Assembly (NCBI GenBank): GCA_964016885.1
Contig: CAXHJY010001732.1
Span: 33,763 to 97,762 of the forward strand
Length of the DNA stretch: 64,000 nt
Source: Eledone cirrhosa
Lineage: Eukaryota
Reading direction: 5' to 3'
The translations under genes and the position numbers were made by a program. Each line of letters begins with the position of its first letter. The stretch's first letter is position 1. The notes under the pieces are model-generated. The model ran no database searches. It was not told the origin of the DNA and saw only the letters and a program-made list of their open reading frames with translations. Shown here one piece after another: positions 5,227 to 59,462 of the stretch.

Positions 5227-8200
5227 GTAAGTTACTCTTTCAATTTATTTCATTAATTTTATTATTAATCCCACCGAGGTTAACTTTGCCTTTCATCCAT
5301 ACAGAGGTCGATAAAATAAAGTACCAGTAATGTACTGGGTAATTGCTGGCCTTGTGCCAAAAGTAGAAACAATTATTATCATCATCATCATCATTGCAGC
5401 ATGGGAGTTATGGCCCTTTACGGTCTGAGTTCAAATCTTGCCGAGGTTAGCTTTGCTTTTCATCCTTACGGGGGTCAATAAAATATAGTACCAGTAATGC
5501 ACTGGGGGTTCGATTTAATCGACCCACCCCCCGCCCCATCACCCAAATTACTGGCCTTGTGCCTACACTAGAAATCATTATCATTGCAGCATAGGAGTTA
5601 TGGCCCTTTACGTTCTGAGTTCAAATCTCGCCACAGTTAACTTTGCCTTTCATCCTTACGGGGGTTGACAAAATATAGTACCAGTAATGCACTGGAGTAA
5701 TTGCTGGCCTTGTGCTAAAAGTTGAAGTGGATTGGTAGTATCTGTAGAGGGTCGGACGGTGTGCTTTGCAGCATAGAGTCACGGCCCTTTACGTCCTGAG
5801 TTCAAATCCCGCCACGGTTAACTTTGCCTTTCATCCTTGCTGGAGTCGATAAAATAAAGTACCAGTCACACACTGGGGTCGATTTAATCGACTTTCCCCT
5901 CCCCCAAAATTGCTGCCCTTGTGCCTATATAAGAAACCATTTTTATTATTTTGGGATTGGCAGAATCGTTAGAGCGTCCGACAAAATACTTGGCAACATT
6001 TAGTTGTGACCCTTTATATTCTGAGCTCAAATCCTACCGAGGTTAACTTTGCCTTTCATCTTTCTACGATGGTTGTGGTGTGGAATGGGTCAATAGAATA
6101 AAGTATCGGTCAAGTACTGGGTTGATGTAATCGATGTGTCTTTCACCCCCACAAATTGTTGGCTATTTGCCTGAAATTAGAAATTGTAATCATCATCATC
6201 ATCATCATCATAGTTGGTGTGTTGGTGGATTGGTCGAATCGTTAGAGAGTCAGAGAAAATAACTTGTGATATTTGTTCCATCTCCTTTACTCTTTTACCT
6301 GATCCATCCCCATCCATCCGGCTGAGGCCATGCTGGGGCACCGCCCTTGTTTGAATGCTTACAGCATCTAGGTTTCCCCAGCGGTCACCCATCTAAGTAC
6401 TAACTAGGATCACTAAGCTTAACATTGCTTAACTTCGGTGATCGGACGAGAACCAGCCTTTTCAGCATGATATGCCTGTAAACATCCTGGGTTCAACTTT
6501 TGCTGGGGTCAACTTTGTCTCTCATCCTTTCAGGGTTGATAAATTAAAGTACCAGTCATGTATTGGGGATAAGTTTGAGCTTCCCTTCACCACAAAATTG
6601 CTGGTCTTGTGCCAAAATTAGAAATCATCATCATCGATTAACGTCTATCTTCCACGCTAGCATGGGTTAAACAGGTTTGTCCTATTTAGAGGCAAGTTGG
6701 GTCAGGTGACTGTGTCTCGCTCATATAGGACAGTTTCCGGATGGTTTTCTACGGCTGGATGCTCTTTCTGACGCCAACCACATTAACAGTGTGTGTTGGG
6801 TACTTTTTGCCATGTCTTTTACACATCCACTTTACAGTGTGGGCTGGGTGCTTTTTGTTGTGACACCTACATGATCACTTTACATAATTATTTGTAATCT
6901 TTTCTCTTATAGAGTTTCACCGTCATCTTCATCTTACACCTGTATTTTCATGCTGAAATGGGTTGGTTAGGTAACACAGTATCTCATCATTCGTTGGAGC
7001 CCTTCATGTCCTGACACACACAACAACAAAGAAAACTCCTCACTTTACTGGACACTGTCCTTCATATCCTGGGGGACGGTGATGCCATCAGAGAAAACCA
7101 CTAATCTTTTCTGGTCACAGTCCTTTGTATCCTGGGGGACACCAACAGATAAAACTTTTGATCTTTGGTGGTCAGTTCTTCATATCTTGACACATACACA
7201 GAGAAAACTTCTGGTCTTTGCTAGCCACTGTTCTTCATATTCTGACCTACACACCCACAGAGAAAACCACTGGTCATTGCTGGTCAGTCCTTTATAGTCT
7301 GACACACACACACTAACAGAGAAAACCACTGGTCACTGCTGGTCAGCCCTTCATATTCTGACCTGCACACCAACATAGAAAACCACTGGTCACTGCTGGT
7401 CAGCCCTTCATATTCTGACCTACACACCAACAGAGAAAACCACTGGTCATTGTTGGTCAGTCCTTCATATTCTGACATACACACCAACATAGAAAACCAC
7501 TGGTCACTGCTGGTCAGCCCTTCATATTCTGACCTACACACCAACAGAGAAAACCACTGGTCATTGTTGGTCAGTCCTTCATATTCTGACATACACACCA
7601 ACATAGAAAACCACTGGTCACTGCTGGTCAGCCCTTCATATTCTGACATACTCACAACAGAGAAAACCACTGGTCATTGCTTCATATTCTGACATACACA
7701 CCAACATAGAAAACCACTGGTCACTTGCTGGTCAGTCCTTCATATCCTGACACATACACACCAGTATAGAAACTCATAGGTCTTTGCTAGCCAATCCTAC
7801 ATGTCTATACATTGTGACACAAAGGACTTCTGTTGTTTGTTGTGTATAACATGTTTTTTAACATGGTTTTTACAGCCTGGTACCCTTCCAATCACCAACC
7901 AATTTACATCATGAACTGGGTGTATTTTATCAGGCTGCCACCATTAACCCTTTATCATTTACATGGTCGTGTAGGAGACACAGTAAAAAGGCCCCCAGCC
8001 CACACTGTAAATGTAGTTGGTGTTTGATAAAGGCATCCAGCCGTAGAAAACCAGCCAGTAACTCTCCTATATGAGCGAGACATGGTCACCCGACCCAAAT
8101 TGCCTCTAAATGGGACAAACCCATCTAACCCATGCTAGCGTGGAAGATAGATATTAAATGACAACGATGATGATGATGATTACCCAATATTTACTATTGT

Positions 8201-21800: not shown

Positions 21801-24800
21801 TATTATAATAATAATAATTGTTTCTAATTTAGGCACAAGGCCAGAAATTTGAAGGGGAAGGGAAAGTCGATTAAATTGACCCCAGTGTTCATCATCCACA
21901 TACTTCACATGTCCCATGTCCATACCAGTACAGTCTTCTCTCATTGCCCCATAACATTTGATTTCTCTAATACATGAACTAACAGAACCATATCTTCATA
22001 TTACAGGGTCGGTGCCAGTCTTCTGTGCTGCTAACAGAGTTCTTGTCTGAGATTGTACAGCTCAGCTATTTCCAAAGAGCACTCCTAGTTTCCACAAGTA
22101 TGCGTGCCATCATTTGCAGAACTGACACAGACAATGAAATCATCCAAGTTGGACAAAAGAAACGAAAAATGTAAGTTCTTTTATTTGCAGTATTATTCAC
22201 AACCCAGAAAATAATGCAGTAAACCTTTGGTCAGTAAAGGGGTTAGTATTGAAAATATACTATAAATATGATGAAATTCAAGTGACAATTTCTACAGGAA
22301 ACTGCCCCTCGTTCTAAGATATATAACTATAAGGGTCTGTCATCAGATGACATTTGTAACCTGTAAAACATATATCTGTATATATGTCCCACAACAACTA
22401 CATTATTTTATATATATATATATTGTGTTGAAAAATGACGTAGACATTACAATATAAAAGATGGCGTAGACATTGCAATACATTGGGAGGAAACATAATA
22501 GCACCACTGATGATGTCGCAGATGTGCAACAAAAGAACTTTGATAGACTATATATATATATATATTTATATCTATATTTTTAACCGTTGGTCAATCAATG
22601 ATAAACATTGATTGCCAGATAAATTAACTATGGAGATATAAAAGATACAGAAGCGAAAACCAACCCAAACCAAACAGTGAGTGTATCCTGTTATTCTGGC
22701 AATATTATAACAATATGACCCTCCCCAAGTATAACAATATATATATATATATATATATATGAAAAGATTCAGGACCCTGATGGCTGAGTTCCGGCCGTTT
22801 CGACAGCTAGATCTGAACTCTTGAAACGGCCGGAGCTCACCTGTCAGGGTCCTGAATCTTTTCATATTACCCACTCTACTACCCCATGTATCGAGTACTC
22901 TGGTGGGTTATGGTCCACCTGGTATTTTACCACACCCTATCTGATATATATAGATATATATATATATATATATATATCATCATCATCATCATCATCTATA
23001 TATATATCCAGGAGGCAGCAGAGGCCCAGGAAGACCAAAAAGGACTTAGATGGAGGATGTCCATCAGGATGAAGCTAGGCTTGGCCTGACCCAAGTGAGA
23101 CCAATGAACAGAAACACATGGAGCAGGACGCTAAGGAGTGCTGTCAGGCAGGACCCACCCTTCGTAGGGATTAATTGTGTCCTGCATAATCAAAAACTGG
23201 ATGATGATATATATATATATGTGTGTTAGGTAATTCCGAAGGAAAAGCAAAGGGAAAAAAGAGTGCTCTATGTATAGAACAGAGCTATTTAATTAGAAAG
23301 TGAACAACACAAAATATAACTACTCCATTACCAAAGGATAACATCTCTGTCTGACGACCGATCCAGACGTCTATATTATTATTATCGTCTGTGATCCAGA
23401 AACCTTTGGTAATGGAGTAGTTCAATTTTGTGTTCACTTTCTAATTAAATGTATATATATATATATATATACAATATATTAATAAATGGAAACTATATTT
23501 ATAAAACCATATTTATTTTATTATACATATTTCAAGGGCCACCAAGGCAAATTATGGTGCGCTTTCATCAGATAAAATACAATACAGATTAGTTTTATAA
23601 ATAAATATTGATATACCCTGAAAAAAGACTATCCAGGAAGCTCCAACCGGTAAGGTTGTCTTTTTTCAGGGTATATCAATATTTATTTATAAAACTAATC
23701 TGTATTGTATTTTATCTGATGAAAGCACACCATAATTTGCCTTGGTGGCCCTTGAAATATGTATAATAAAATAAATATGGTTTTATAAATATAGTTTCCA
23801 TTTGTTAATATATTGTATATTTACACCAATAATTTGTTGAGTGCTTTATATCAGTTATAAAAATATTTTTAAGCTTGTTGTATCCCAACAAATTAAATAT
23901 AACTTCTGCATATATATATATATATATATATAAGACTGCCTGTATTATCAGATCTGATCTGGGGTGGGATCTGATGTCTGTATTATTAGTCAACACTATC
24001 GAGACTGCCTTATCTGATCTGATCTAGCATCGGATCTGATCCGATACAATAGTAAATCATCATCATCATCATCACTGTTTTACGTCTATTCTTCCACACT
24101 AGCATGGGTTAGGCGGGTTGTCCTGTTGTGGGCAGTGTCCAGTCGGCTGACCTTGTCTTGCTCATACGGGAACTGATTCTGGCTTGATTTCTACAGCTGG
24201 ATGCCCTTCCTAACACCAACCTCATTTACAGTGAGTGCTGGGGGCTTTTTTGCTGTGGCACCTCCATGACCACTTTACAGTGGGAGGGGGTGAGGGCATA
24301 TTGTCTATATGCTTCAGCTTCAGCCCATGTGAAGAGTGATATAAATGCTAAAGCAGAGGTTCTCAAACTTTTGGGGCTACTGCCCCTCCTCACGGCCACG
24401 TAAAACCCTCAGCAACCCCAACCCTATTCCCAGAGAAACCTGCCTACATGCAAATTGTAAATAACATATAATAAATAAGAGTGTTAATTTATATATAATA
24501 AATAATATAATATATACAACGTATAAATAAATGTTATATCTTTTTTATTTCACTATATTTATATATGTCTCATTTGATATTTTATATTCTATTATATCAT
24601 CTCTACCGCCACCCACCAACCCCTTAGGCCCTAGCAATCCCTGGGACCTTCTCAATGCTCCACGGGGTTGGGGCAGTGATGCCCACTTTGAGAACATCTG
24701 TGCTAAAGGGTTAATGAAAAGTAAAATATAACATTTGTAATTCTCTGGTAAATCTTCTTCTGCAGACCTGGTAACTACGGTGCTTGCTTCATCCCGATGC

Positions 24801-50225: not shown

Positions 50226-50938
50226 TATATATTGTGCTTTATTTCTGTTGTTTTGTTGCTTCTCTTCCTGTCTCCATTAATTGTGGACATTTCTGAAATT
50301 ATGTCTGTCTGTTCTGTATATGAAGTCTGAAAGTAAATCTGTCATTTATTTCATGAGGACAGAATATTCATTGAGGCATTCACTTTCTGGAAATAGATTC
50401 TATTAAAGTTTGGCTGTAAGATGCTTCCTACCCACCCAACCCATACCCCCTATCCTACAATTATTGGAATTGGAAAGAATTTTTTTTTTAATTTGTTTTG
50501 AATCAACTGTCTCTTTTTTTTTTTTTTTTTGACATTGCTTTCGTGGTGTTATTAATTATTATAATGATGAAAAAATATATAAACCTTGAATAATTACAAA
50601 AAAAAATTATTTCAAATATTCAATATACTAAATAGTTGTTAGTTTTGAGGACAGCTACAATTTGGGACGTCGTACAAAATAATTAAGTCTGTTTCGGTTA
50701 TGTTTATTATCTCAGAAAATAAAATCTTTTTCCCCCCATTGACTACAAATGTCTTCACTTCTTTTCCTTTCTATATTAAAGTTCTTGTCCTGTTGAGATG
50801 TAGGAGTATTTTCTATGTGTTGTACATATTTGGAAGTCCTCAGATTTTGGTTATGCGAGACACACCAGAACAGAAACTCAAACCCTCCATCTCAATTTTA
50901 CTTTTATTATTCATAAGAACTGTGAAACCTGTAGAGTA

Positions 50939-53618: not shown

Positions 53619-53935
53619 CATGTATGTATATATATATATACATGTATGTATATATATATATACATATATATATATATACATATATATATATACATGTATG
53701 TATATATATATATATACATATATGTATATATATATACATATATGTATGTAGATAAATCTACCAAGAGTTTACGGTAGTGTCCAATCCGTATGAAGAACTC
53801 AATGTATTCCGGATATCATGGAAAGAAGAGATGTAATGAAAAACCACTTTCGGTGAAAGATAAACGGTATACAGAGTCAAGATAAAATATTAAACAAATA
53901 ATGAATAAACAATTCCTTATATTAAACAAAAAAAG

Positions 53936-54090
53936 TTCATTATTTAACGATCGTTTCTAGGATATATATGTGTTATAATTGGTATGCATATTCAACAGAT
54001 CTATGTACAAAATTATACAAAATTATACAAATTATCAAGATTAAATATACATACCAAACACATATATACGCCGTCTTCAGAAATAATGAA
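53936..54090 (-). ncRNA. Hammerhead motif with 116-nt stem II, inverted copy of 56020-56174
   Basis: Reverse complement of the 56020-56174 motif. Confidence 0.75.
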
Positions 54091-54902
54091 GTATATTTAT
54101 TGATAATAACAACAATTCAAAATTTCAGTTCAAAATTGACCAATGAAAACACAAAAGGTTAAATGCAGTTCGGTGTGTGTATATACATGTAAAACCCTTA
54201 CACATATTTTACAAAAATGTATGTATAATTTGTATACGCATACTAAAAGGATGGATGCAAATACGAAATTTCAAGGTTAATGTCTCTGTGAGCTTACATG
54301 CGCAGATAAGATGCGCATTGATACTTATGAAATCAAGTATATAAATATATTTTTTTTCATACTCACACATATCAGTACAATCACACATACACGCGCGTAT
54401 ATGCATAAATATACACATAACCACGAACATACAAACACACACACACCCCCACTCACATTTATATATGTGGATATAAAATCATAAGCACATGGATATTAAT
54501 TCACTCACATAAAACACTGGCACACACATTTCTAGATCAAGATACAGAAATTAGGTGGGAGGGGGGGGGGGAGGGGTCAGTATTCAACTGTCTGAGCAAA
54601 CTGTCTAATATAAATGTATCTATAAATTAAGAAAAATAAAAAAATAAACAATAAAATATAATAAATATAATGTAATATACATACACATACAGATATATAC
54701 ACATACATACATGTACGCACACATAGAAATATTTACGCATACGCACATACACACATACATATACAGTCATACACACACATACACTTACACGAACATACAC
54801 ATACACATATATAAAGATATATATATACACACACACACACACACGCAACACATACACATATATATAAAAATAAACAATAAAGATATATACCTATATATAT
54901 AT

Positions 54903-54955
<53 letters not shown>

Positions 54956-55356
54956 CACACACATACATCTAAATATACATACACATACATACACACATAC
55001 ATGTACATACATGTACATACATATACGCACATCGATATACATATATATATATATATACACATATATATATACACACACATAGACATGTAGATACATACAC
55101 ACACAACTTACATACACACATATATATATACATGTATATTCATACATAGAATTAGATATATAATCATACATACTTATGCACTTACTTATACTCATATATA
55201 CAAATACATACGCATCTATATATGCATATATACATAAAAAAAACTACAACCTCACCTAACTCAGACATACAAATAAAAATAATAATAAAAAGGCATATGT
55301 ATATACATACACACACGCATTAATAGAGATATATATATAGAGACACATACATACAC

Positions 55357-55422
<66 letters not shown>

Positions 55423-55425
55423 ACT

Positions 55426-55469
<44 letters not shown>

Positions 55470-56019
55470 GATATCCATTATTCTTAATTTATAGATACAT
55501 TTATATTAGACAGTTTGCTCAGACAGTTGAATACTGACCCCTCCCCCCCCCCCTCCCACCTAATTTCTGTATCTTGATCTAGAAATGTGTGTGCCAGTGT
55601 TTTATGTGAGTGAATTAATATCCATGTGCTTATGATTTTATATCCACATATATAAATGTGAGTGGGGGTGTGTGTGTGTTTGTATGTTCTTGGTTATGTA
55701 TATTTATGCATATACGCGCGTGTATGTGTGATTGTACTGATATGTGTGAGTATGAAAAAATATATTTATATACTTGATTTCATAAGTATCAATGCGCATC
55801 TTATCTACGCATGTAAGCTCACAGAGACATTAACCTTGAAATTTCGTATTTGCATCCATCCTTTTAGTATGCGTATACAAATTATACATACATTTTTGTA
55901 AAATATGTGTAAGGGTTTTACATGTATATACACACACCGAACTGCATTTAACCTTTTGTGTTTTCATTGGTCAATTTTGAACTGAAATTTTGAATTGTTG
56001 TTATTATCAATAAATATAC

Positions 56020-56174
56020 TTCATTATTTCTGAAGACGGCGTATATATGTGTTTGGTATGTATATTTAATCTTGATAATTTGTATAATTTTGTATAATTT
56101 TGTACATAGATCTGTTGAATATGCATACCAATTATAACACATATATATCCTAGAAACGATCGTTAAATAATGAA
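56020..56174 (+). ncRNA. Type-I hammerhead motif with 116-nt stem II
   Basis: 10-bp stem I ttcattattt/aaataatgaa; CTGAAGA at 56030; long stem gtatatatgtgtt/aacacatatatat and tggtatgtatatt/aatatgcatacca; GAAA at 56153; palindrome cgatcg; GUU site. Confidence 0.78.
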
Positions 56175-56419
56175 CTTTTTTTGTTTTAATATAAGGAATT
56201 GTTTATTCATTATTTGTTTAATATTTTACATATATGTATATATATATACGTATATGTATATATATATATATGTATATATATGTATATGTATATATATATA
56301 TGTGTATGTATATATATATATGTGTATGTATATATATATATATATATATGTATATGTATATATATATATGTGTATGTATATATATATATGTGTATGTATA
56401 TATATATATGTGTATATGT

Positions 56420-56668: not shown

Positions 56669-58478
56669 TAACTTTGAATAACTTTGAATAACTTTGAAAT
56701 GTTTTGGCCAGTATTGGCCCAGGCCATGTCTAACTTAATAGCACCACCTGGCGAAGTCTTTCATTCAGGATTTGGGCACCATGGCCCATTCGAGAAGAGA
56801 ATTACTGTTTGCGGAGACATATCCGGGTGTGGGTGGTTTGTCCGGGATTACTTGGAGGAATTTGTCCAAAGACTTCTTGAATTTTGTGTGGTCAGTTTCT
56901 GTTTTGACGTGTCCTGGTGTGATGTTGAAGAGAGCAGGGCCGATTGAGGTGAAATAATTGTGCCGTATTGTTGTTATGAGTTGCGATTTAGATTTTTGAA
57001 TGGGACGGATAGCACGGGGCCCAAGCCTTGGGTGTATCTTGAAGGCGATGCCAACATCATTTGGGCAGTGATGATGGAACATTTTCCACATCATGCAGAT
57101 AATATAACGCTCACGGCGGACGTTGGAGTGAGTAAAGTTTCAGGTTTTCCAATCGACCCCAGTAGTCAAGGTCTGACATGCCATCTATCTTTTTCGTGAT
57201 TGCCCTTTGAGGAGCTTCAAGTTTCATGATACTTTGTTTCGTGTGGGGAGACCACAGTGGACAACAGTATTCAAGGTGTGGTCGGGCGAAAGTAGAGAAG
57301 AGAAGGATAATGGTGCGGGAATCTCTCGACTGGAAGGTTCTGAGGATCCAGGAACACTGCGGGCCATGTCAACTTTGCTGCTTATATGCGTGGTCCAGCT
57401 TATGTTGCTGCTGTCCACGGTTACTCCCAAGTCTCTGATGTTGTTAGATGCCACGAGAGTTTCCCCGGAGGGAAGGGAGTACGGGAGTTTCAGAGCATCC
57501 TCTTTTCCAAAGTGGATCAGTTCGAATTTGTCTTCGTTCAGTAACATGTTGTTCTTTTCTGCCCATTGGGTAACAGCCAGTAGGTCTGACTGAAGGCTTA
57601 TCCGGTCATCCACGCCATTGATGACCTTTTGGAGCTTGGAATCATCAGCGAAAATTTTAATGTTGCTGTGTTTGATGATGTCAGTGATGTCATTAATATA
57701 GATGATGAAGAGAAGTGGGCCCAACACAGTGCCTTGTGGGACCCCACTACTGACTTTGGCTGGGCTTGATTTGACTCCCTCAACTACAACATGTTGGGTT
57801 CTGTTTGACAGGAAGCTCTTGATCCACTGCAGCAGCTTTCCAGTGACACCAATATTGGACAGCTTTCTCAGTAGAATGTTATGATCAACCCTGTCAAAGG
57901 CCTTGCTGAAATCAAGGTAGATAACATCAGTGTTGGAACCCTCTCCCAAGGCTCTCAAAATGTCATCAAAGTGATGCAGTAGTTGCGTCAGGCAATCCCT
58001 TCCATTACGGAATCCATGCTGGTTGGAGTTCAGCATATTGTTACTCTCAAGGAAGTGGGTCATTCGCGATCTCACCACTCGCTCAAATACCTTAATGATA
58101 TGAGAGGTGAGTGAGATTGGACGGTAATTCACGGCAAGGGATTTGTTTCCCTTTTTGAAAACTGGGACAACAGACTGGGATAGAAGGTTTTCTGGCACAT
58201 ATCCAGCATCCAGTGAGTTCCGCCACAGATTGGCAAGAGGAGAAGCAAGTTGGTGTTGACACGCCTTCAAGACACAAGCAGGGAACCTATCGGGACCTAC
58301 TGCTGAATTATGCTTGATTTCCTTTATTGCCGCCAAGACATCAGGGGCGCCAAACGTTATGTCCGATAAGGTGTAATGGGGAGTAACATCGCCGATACAG
58401 CCCAGATCGGCCATATCAGGATTGCTGAAAACAGAGCAGTATTGTTTCTGCAGTATCTCACCCATGGTTTTAGCATTG
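56669..58478 (-). mobile_element. 5'-truncated LINE (CR1/L2-group) with reverse transcriptase domain and frameshifted C-terminus
   Basis: [70 protein letters not shown]; 3' tail (TTCAAAGTTA)x3; inserted in a TA array. Confidence 0.92.
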
Positions 58479-59181: not shown

Positions 59182-59230
59182 CATACATATATATATATAT
59201 ATAAAATATTTTCATATCATTCCAATACAA

Positions 59231-59347
59231 AGGTCTGACGACATGGTGTGTTTGCTTACAGTGTACCTTCGGTTTATGATAATATTTGTATATTATTCAA
59301 ATAGCGAGGTATAGGTAACCCATACACTATAGAAACAATTGTTACCT
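59231..59347 (+). ncRNA. Type-I hammerhead motif with 90-nt stem II
   Basis: aggt CTGACGA c atggtgtgt...atacactat a GAAA caattg TT acct. Confidence 0.78.
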
Positions 59348-59399
59348 AATAAATTCTATATACCCGCATTTCCATTTCGTAAACTTCTTCTCCATATGT

Positions 59400-59462
<63 letters not shown>

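Follow-up and report, generated by a model that had tools for sequence, protein, structure and literature searches.

The G10.1-C11.1 pair with which helix II begins belongs to the hammerhead consensus, but natural exceptions have been published (PMC8557442, PMC7229834, PMC3088659). In the minimal hammerheads of Penelope-like elements (PLEs), which typically carry an additional base following A9, this pair is described as highly conserved and helix II as 4-8 bp long (Cervera and De la Pena 2014, PMC4209133); one of the 56 rows in Fig. S3 of that study reads AGAAA, although which row it is remains unsure. The Hydra clade of PLEs is characterised by RWK-like and DKT motifs, by CxCX5C, CxxC and CxH without the CCHH motif, and by elements generally shorter than 3 kb. 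By our count, the 25 Hydra families in File S2 of Craig et al. (2021, PMC8557442) comprise 7 with G-C, 14 with U·U, 3 with G·U and 1 with U·C, so that 18 of the 25 depart from G10.1-C11.1. The same file marks two spike-moss motifs with longer arms as deviating. As reported by Perreault (2011, PMC3088659), U·U supports more activity than other mispairs at 10.1-11.1, and the axolotl hammerhead HHR_Amex2, with a U·U mismatch at the base of helix II, reaches 22% cleavage within an hour when monomeric, and its dimer does better (PMC7229834). The element PAc is described as being copied from uncut RNA, and its hammerhead as needing its protein (PMC11167929).

The motif studied here lies in a 64-kb window (the whole stretch of DNA analysed, 64,000 nucleotides from Eledone cirrhosa) and is composed as follows:

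56020..56174, forward strand: type I hammerhead motif, a 155-mer recognised from sequence and fold
56020-56029 with 56165-56174, forward strand: stem I, 10 bp
56030-56036, forward strand: CUGAAGA core box
56037..56152, forward strand: stem II, 116 nt, starting with C56037 and ending with A56152
56153-56156, forward strand: GAAA box
56156..56163, forward strand: palindromic stem III, ACGAUCGU, the predicted dimer interface (sequence and energy model)
GUU site, forward strand: predicted cut after 56164

An earlier note on this DNA had proposed the arrangement of stem I, CUGAAGA, the C/A flanks, the 116-nt hairpin, GAAA, the palindrome and GUU, and all of these were found where it had placed them. 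The motif contains the complete core (C3-U4-G5-A6-N7-G8-A9, G12-A13-A14, A15.1-U16.1 and the H17 site) and three helices with an open stem I, and its stem III, ACGAUCGU, is palindromic as in the minimal PLE hammerheads. It departs from the consensus in two respects: the first pair is C·A instead of G10.1-C11.1, and stem II, with about 30 bp in 116 nt, is not the short helix II of 4-8 bp. Read outwards, stem II begins with C56037·A56152, followed by G·U, G-C and a C·C mismatch, and its interior combines a small inner hairpin, the loop of which contains 10-nt repeats, with two long helices. The C·C mismatch at in-register pair 4 (window 56040/56149) is seen in the 56020 lineage, and C·C at pair 4 also occurs in 14 of 38 distinct stem ends from the genome census described below (census loci L137-L256). 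By analogy with the minimal PLE hammerheads, C56037 could also be numbered as an extra base after A9, a numbering that applies only if an additional A also precedes G12.

With regard to folding, the hairpin is as long and well paired as had been claimed: the 155-mer fold has a z-score of -6.82, and none of 200 shuffles was as stable. In the energy model, the stem III self-duplex of the 56020 motif amounts to -10.0 kcal/mol, and a two-copy cofold reaches -108.2 kcal/mol against -95.6 for two monomers, i.e. 12.6 kcal/mol lower; the active-like monomer fold of the same motif sits 3.2 kcal/mol above the minimum. RNAalifold applied to the lineage consensus paired C3-U4 with G12 and A11.1, giving an inactive fold, and this CU/AG pairing has a probability of 0.06 in the 56020 copy itself. 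A search of the locus against Rfam with E up to 10 gave no hammerhead match and two weak miRNA matches only, in agreement with the expectation that standard descriptors would miss the motif. Over the window, no hammerhead was present among the 150 of 392 Rfam matches listed.

To examine how the junction bases are distributed, we searched the 3.0-Gb assembly (1,796 contigs) with a pattern containing the 56020 core and stem III and an arm of 86-116 nt, both junction bases being left free. This pattern gave 12,709 matches, compared to 10 for its reverse. C…A was found in 11,145 of the matches (87.7%), whereas C preceded GAAA in 291 (2.3%), the remaining matches numbering 1,273. Most of the 100 listed among the 291 represent another family, with G-C and an arm of 95-97 nt. 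An independent profile, built from the arm interior alone without core or junction, was run on a 1.2-Mb sample and recovered seven copies; A preceded GAAA in all seven, and C was found in five of the six that reach the 5' junction. The earlier note had held that C/A would have to be regarded as decay if the family consensus were G-C. Mutational decay of G-C in old copies would be in keeping with the existence of the sister long-arm family with G-C and with the variation of single old copies at the junction, but it is largely refuted by these counts, and C…A is found upstream of intact ORFs and across older subfamilies. We therefore consider decay very improbable; C…A is an inherited family state. 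Within the family, arm length ranges from 93 to 116 nt, and C·A, U·A, U·U and G-C occur as natural variants of the first pair.

The long arm itself shows signs of having been maintained. Among 21 members of the lineage, 92.5% of 912 cells in stem II were paired, compared to 19-59% in slid controls. Covariation, which had been suggested as a check on the motif, was evident as well: the stem II score was 0.152, none of 500 shuffles scored as high, and 8 of 45 pairs changed on both sides. Since the 21 rows are related, were hand-picked for diversity and have a core that is invariant by construction of the alignment, the compensatory changes are to be taken as support for selection on the arm, not as proof. 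In the lineage, the outer part of stem II consists of C·A at pair 1, one of G-C, G·U and A-U at pair 2, G-C at pair 3 and C·C at pair 4. The pair following C·A was G-C in 8, G·U in 6 and A-U in 6 of the 21 rows, and it is not G-C in the families of the motifs at 59231 and 23345 (see below).

Some copies of the motif form inverted pairs, and others are tandem copies with a spacing of 6.44 kb. The tandem unit encloses an ORF of 830 codons that starts about 300 nt past the predicted cut; all 54 scored copies of this ORF were 99-100% identical, and 50 of the 54 were without a stop. The tandem copies, the ORF and the insertion layout place the hammerhead in the pLTR of a Penelope-like element, and this layout matches the one published for such elements (PMC8557442). 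The parent protein (830 aa, single ORF) consists of a reverse transcriptase (RT) followed by a C-terminal GIY-YIG domain. The RT motifs and VY…YIG were identified in its sequence and are conserved in homologues, while the parent protein had no supporting match in Pfam or among PDB sequences. The protein contains RWR at residues 54-56, DKT at 132-134, CxCX5C at 690-698, CxxC at 788-791 and CxH at 816-818. All five are conserved in a set of 38 homologues, the last three in 26-30 of the 27-31 that cover those residues. A conserved CCHH endonuclease motif is absent: the two Cys and the second His close to the GIY-YIG vary, C713 being found in 4 of 30 and H741 in 4 of 29 homologues. All 33 free 3' ends adjoin TA repeats, i.e. 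insertion is into (TA)n. These results demonstrate that the parent is a young Penelope-like element with Hydra-clade protein motifs; the likeness of its protein to Hydra-1_Obim and Hydra-1_Amil was judged by eye, and the probable Hydra placement is based on the motifs. The Nematis clade was considered for the parent and dropped after comparison of the clade motifs. The unit of 6.44 kb exceeds the size below 3 kb that is typical of the Hydra clade, though not strict, because of a non-coding stretch of about 3.5 kb between ORF and hammerhead; the units of sister families measure 2,986 and 3,551 bp. This stretch (L031:3847-7350) is rich in microsatellites and is carried in young copies. The one-sided tail was found to be 137 nt (window 53745-53882; L031:1117-1253), compared to the 30-40 nt usually described.

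In the window, the element is represented by two 5'-truncated 3' ends lying back to back, each with an identical hammerhead:

55477..56228, forward strand: right arm, 5'-truncated 3' end of the element, ending 63 nt past the cut in (TA)n
53745..55477, reverse strand: left arm, again a 3' end of this element, in inverted orientation and 5'-truncated, reaching 201 nt past the cut and ending in (TA)n
53936..54090, reverse strand: identical twin of the 56020 hammerhead, recognised from sequence

The inverted arms are 98.9% identical over 756 bp. The 56020 copy itself is likely to be inert, since a transcript across the insertion would pair with this inverted twin. A LINE-type RT fragment at 57224-58450 (reverse strand) was considered as the parent and rejected; it is a separate insertion (RVT_1, E 4e-32), interrupted by TA repeats. 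A descriptor search of the window gave 11 hammerhead-like motifs in all. Seven further matches (23579, 46945, 35619, 20389, 537 and 50848 on the reverse strand, 23708 on the forward strand) were noted, most of which fall into further repeated hammerhead families whose first pair is A-U or U·U; the match at 50848 may be due to chance. Exons of a TECPR2/HPS5-like gene were seen at window positions 4375-39485 (forward strand), with HPS5 beta-propeller, Hyd_WA and Tectonin matches, and the part of the window from 39.5 to 51.6 kb yielded no exon with Pfam support. A 5S rRNA-like sequence at 6356-6483 (reverse strand; 63 bits, above the Rfam gathering score) contains a 9-nt insertion and is probably a pseudogene or a SINE head.

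Among published hammerheads, those of the Hydra clade as described by Craig et al. (2021, PMC8557442) resemble the 56020 motif. Both are type I, lie in a terminal repeat, accompany a C-terminal GIY-YIG protein and are associated with (TA)n; in both, the first pair in register is often not G-C and stem III is small and near-palindromic. In contrast, stem II with its loop does not exceed 26 nt in the published Hydra table and spans 93-116 nt here, C…A is present in the 56020 family and in no Hydra row of that table, and the Hydra elements are described as shorter than 3 kb with a tail of 30-40 nt, compared to 6.44 kb and 137 nt. One motif in the same source, PLE-X1_cBra from Chara braunii, resembles 56020 in having C after CUGAUGA and A before GAAA. 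There the C…A encloses a G-C pair and the motif is tabulated as canonical; unlike in 56020, its stem II has about 21 nt and its element is Chlamys-related and endonuclease-less. The minimal PLE hammerheads (PMC4209133) share with 56020 the pLTR location, the palindromic stem III, the prediction of a dimer and the expectation of low activity, but differ from its C·A in register and its stem II of about 30 bp by their highly conserved G10.1-C11.1 and their short helix II. HHR_Amex2 has U·U where 56020 has C·A, and both HHR_Amex2 and PAc combine a short helix II with assayed activity (PMC7229834, PMC11167929), whereas the cleavage of 56020 is a prediction. We found no PLE hammerheads with arms of about 100 nt in the literature searched, which was covered mostly at record level. 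The arm length (up to 116 nt, against at most 26 nt published) thus seems to be the unpublished part. The result is otherwise a modest one, since earlier tables already include the clade, the relaxation of its first pair and one example of C…A.

The ends of the copies bear on how the motif may be used. Among 35 motif copies (L001-L030; some overlapping loci are counted twice), the 3' end lies at cut+63/64 in 16 and at cut+201/203 in 17, and the remaining 2 continue into the ORF. These two fixed 3' ends are comparable to the pair of RT start sites that PAc has downstream of its hammerhead (PMC11167929). With regard to the 5' ends of 30 copies with a full ORF, none begins at the predicted cut, the nearest ones lying at +7 and +38, and 23 of the 30 include the whole upstream hammerhead. 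A genomic footprint of cutting is therefore absent; the inclusion of the upstream motif is what would be expected if the template is uncut RNA, as for PAc.

Taken together, we favour the interpretation, with a probability of about two in three, that the 56020 motif represents a PLE hammerhead in which C·A and the long arm are inherited traits, and that such hammerheads would cut after U56164 slowly, as dimers and perhaps aided by a protein. Two copies in a tandem transcript would pair via the palindromic stem III. The C·A would likely be stacked as a tolerated mismatch under A9·G12, like U·U in the relatives; HHR_Amex2 with its U·U is a precedent by analogy for activity despite a mismatch at the first pair, and C·A may be a poor one, because U·U is the best of the mispairs at 10.1-11.1 (PMC3088659). 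The arm could likely lengthen because minimal hammerheads need no contacts between the loops of stem I and stem II. The RNA that gets copied would mostly be uncut, since reverse transcription appears to start 64 or 201 nt downstream and to run through the motif.

The same 5' ends would also fit an element in which the fold is kept as a platform for protein binding or folding, C·A and the long arm making it effectively non-cleaving. Such a role agrees with the lack of starts at the cut and with the 23 copies that run through the upstream motif, with in vitro insertion by catalytic mutants of PAc (PMC11167929), with the success of Naiad elements that thrive without canonical hammerheads (PMC8557442) and with the weaker activity expected for C·A than for U·U (PMC3088659). 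We nevertheless regard it as unlikely, as judged by the parts that have been kept: CUGANGA, GAAA, the UH site and the palindromic stem III persist behind ORFs that are 33-53% identical, and in the sequencing runs the H17 base varies between U and A alone, both of which are allowed.

The interior of the arm carries signals that resemble those of an intron:

56056..56109, forward strand: candidate 54-nt retained intron in stem II, GUAUGU…UGAU…UAG, recognised by pattern

On this basis, the arm could be a regulatory module of a regulated ribozyme. The arm, grown 4-fold, would contain a retained intron of 42-54 nt with a masked donor and would be edited from A to I by ADAR, and C·A together with the C·C at pair 4 would hold cleavage off until splicing, editing or a protein remodels the arm. 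The sequence GUAUGU…UGAU…UAG is present as one pattern of 42-54 nt in 16 of the 21 lineage rows, and the strand with the donor has 10 non-consensus cells compared to 33 in its partner, whereas the outer helix is symmetric (39 and 40). The Penelope intron of D. virilis is described as ending at the hammerhead of that element (PMC4209133). Moreover, sequencing run X4 has A>G changes at four sites in stem II that are absent or below 0.05% in X2 and X3, a pattern that hints at A-to-I editing. The changes lie at window positions 56069, 56131, 56143 and 56145 (L031:925-1040) and amount to 4-35% of depth. X4 is a run whose kind is not on record, from another sample, and outside the stem a single T>G is enriched in it as well; alleles can therefore explain the A>G changes. 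Donor and branch are separated by 19-23 nt, which is short for animal introns. The exact intronless form was found in none of 17 shortened genomic copies, no splice-like joint was seen in the five runs X1-X5, and the six other long-arm families checked have no shared set of donor, branch and acceptor. Introns as a general explanation of long arms thus failed in those six families, and for the 56020 lineage we consider a regulated arm doubtful, slightly more so than the non-cleaving platform. The slowly cleaving, inherited hammerhead remains our preferred reading.

The C…A flanks had also been reported at two other positions of the window, 23345 (41-nt stem II) and 59231 (90-nt stem II), and were confirmed in both:

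59231..59347, forward strand: hammerhead with C…A and a 90-nt stem II, from a sister family of Hydra type and part of a remnant that spans 59202-59432
23345..23417, forward strand: hammerhead from a third family, with a stem II of 41 nt in which C·A is followed by C·C

The motif at 59231 had been called unrelated-looking. This does not apply to its parent, a unit of 2,986 bp in L267, whose RT is 52% identical to that of the 56020 element (residues 38-489). For the family of 23345, no parent ORF was found, a tandem-spaced locus (L257) being without a match to the parent protein; 15 of the 21 matching motifs in its 20 best-scoring loci read CC…CA. In four other diverged families, intact cores were found behind the ORF, and several other related ORF remnants had no hammerhead within 2 kb downstream. 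The genome also contains retrozyme-like short tandem hammerhead repeats (G000:C3:100447149-100448340, L146 and L177), with units of about 535 bp with C·A and a 48-51-nt arm and of about 466 bp with G-C and a 14-nt arm. Behind a different RT family, with a YVDD motif (L162, L230, L264), lies a short, bulged hammerhead that has G-C and a stem II of 18 nt; canonical minimal hammerheads thus coexist in this genome.

We also asked whether the long arm and C…A define a single subclass, using a census of 120 evenly spaced 10-kb regions. It gave 75 motifs in 22 clusters, compared to none in the reversed control. By copy, the first pair was G-C in 21, A-U, C·A and U·U in 12 each, G·U in 5, U-A and A·A in 4 each, A·G in 3 and other in 2, and stem II was longer than the longest published Hydra example in 45 of the 75. 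Of the 9 clusters with a stem II of at least 48 nt, 5 had C·A as their most frequent first pair, compared to 0 of the 13 with a shorter one (Fisher p = 0.005; the 48-nt cut-off was set post hoc, the clusters are related, and the C·A family of 23345, with 38-41 nt, lies outside the sample). G-C is found on long arms as well (in most of the 100 listed among the 291 matches above), as are U·U, A·A and A·G. A second type of stem III accounted for 5,902 further matches with arms of 75-105 nt, and in the 100 of these listed all four bases follow the core, C in about 15.

In metagenomes, a scan with the single parent protein found no relative (596 stretches), and one with eight homologues gave 78 loci, 58 of them with a hammerhead. 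The 53 distinct motifs comprised 21 with G-C, 16 with U·U, 5 with G·U, 5 with A-U, 3 with A·C, 2 with C·A and 1 with C·U, hence a departure from G-C in 32 of 53, and stem II was 10-25 nt long in 52 of them. The two C·A motifs come from a single Hydra element, L328, whose two repeats they represent, and have a stem II of 21 nt. In an RT tree of 52 regions (a quick search with SH-aLRT only, midpoint-rooted), the four long-armed families of this genome fall in a 9-row group from the same genome (SH-aLRT 99), and L328 falls among the 40 metagenome rows. C·A is thus enriched among long-arm clusters, yet the two traits separate. The recurring subclass of the earlier note stands in so far as C…A is found in several families and is the commonest first pair in five of the nine long-arm clusters; the single class of long stem II with C…A does not, as other first pairs (G-C, U·U, A·A, A·G) are also seen on long arms and C…A also on short ones. 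We rejected the idea of the long arm as compensation for the mismatch, since short U·U arms (12-18 nt), C·A with 21 nt and long G-C arms all exist.

It follows that searches limited in arm length and fixed on G-C undercount these ribozymes. The hammerhead search of Craig et al. (PMC8557442) used bare cores and allowed no more than 17 nt of spacer, and some Naiads are listed there as 'half core'; some 'hammerhead-less' elements therefore deserve a second look. In this genome, a young family that has dozens of intact ORFs and varies naturally in both the first pair and the arm length provides a ready series with which to test the importance of G10.1-C11.1.
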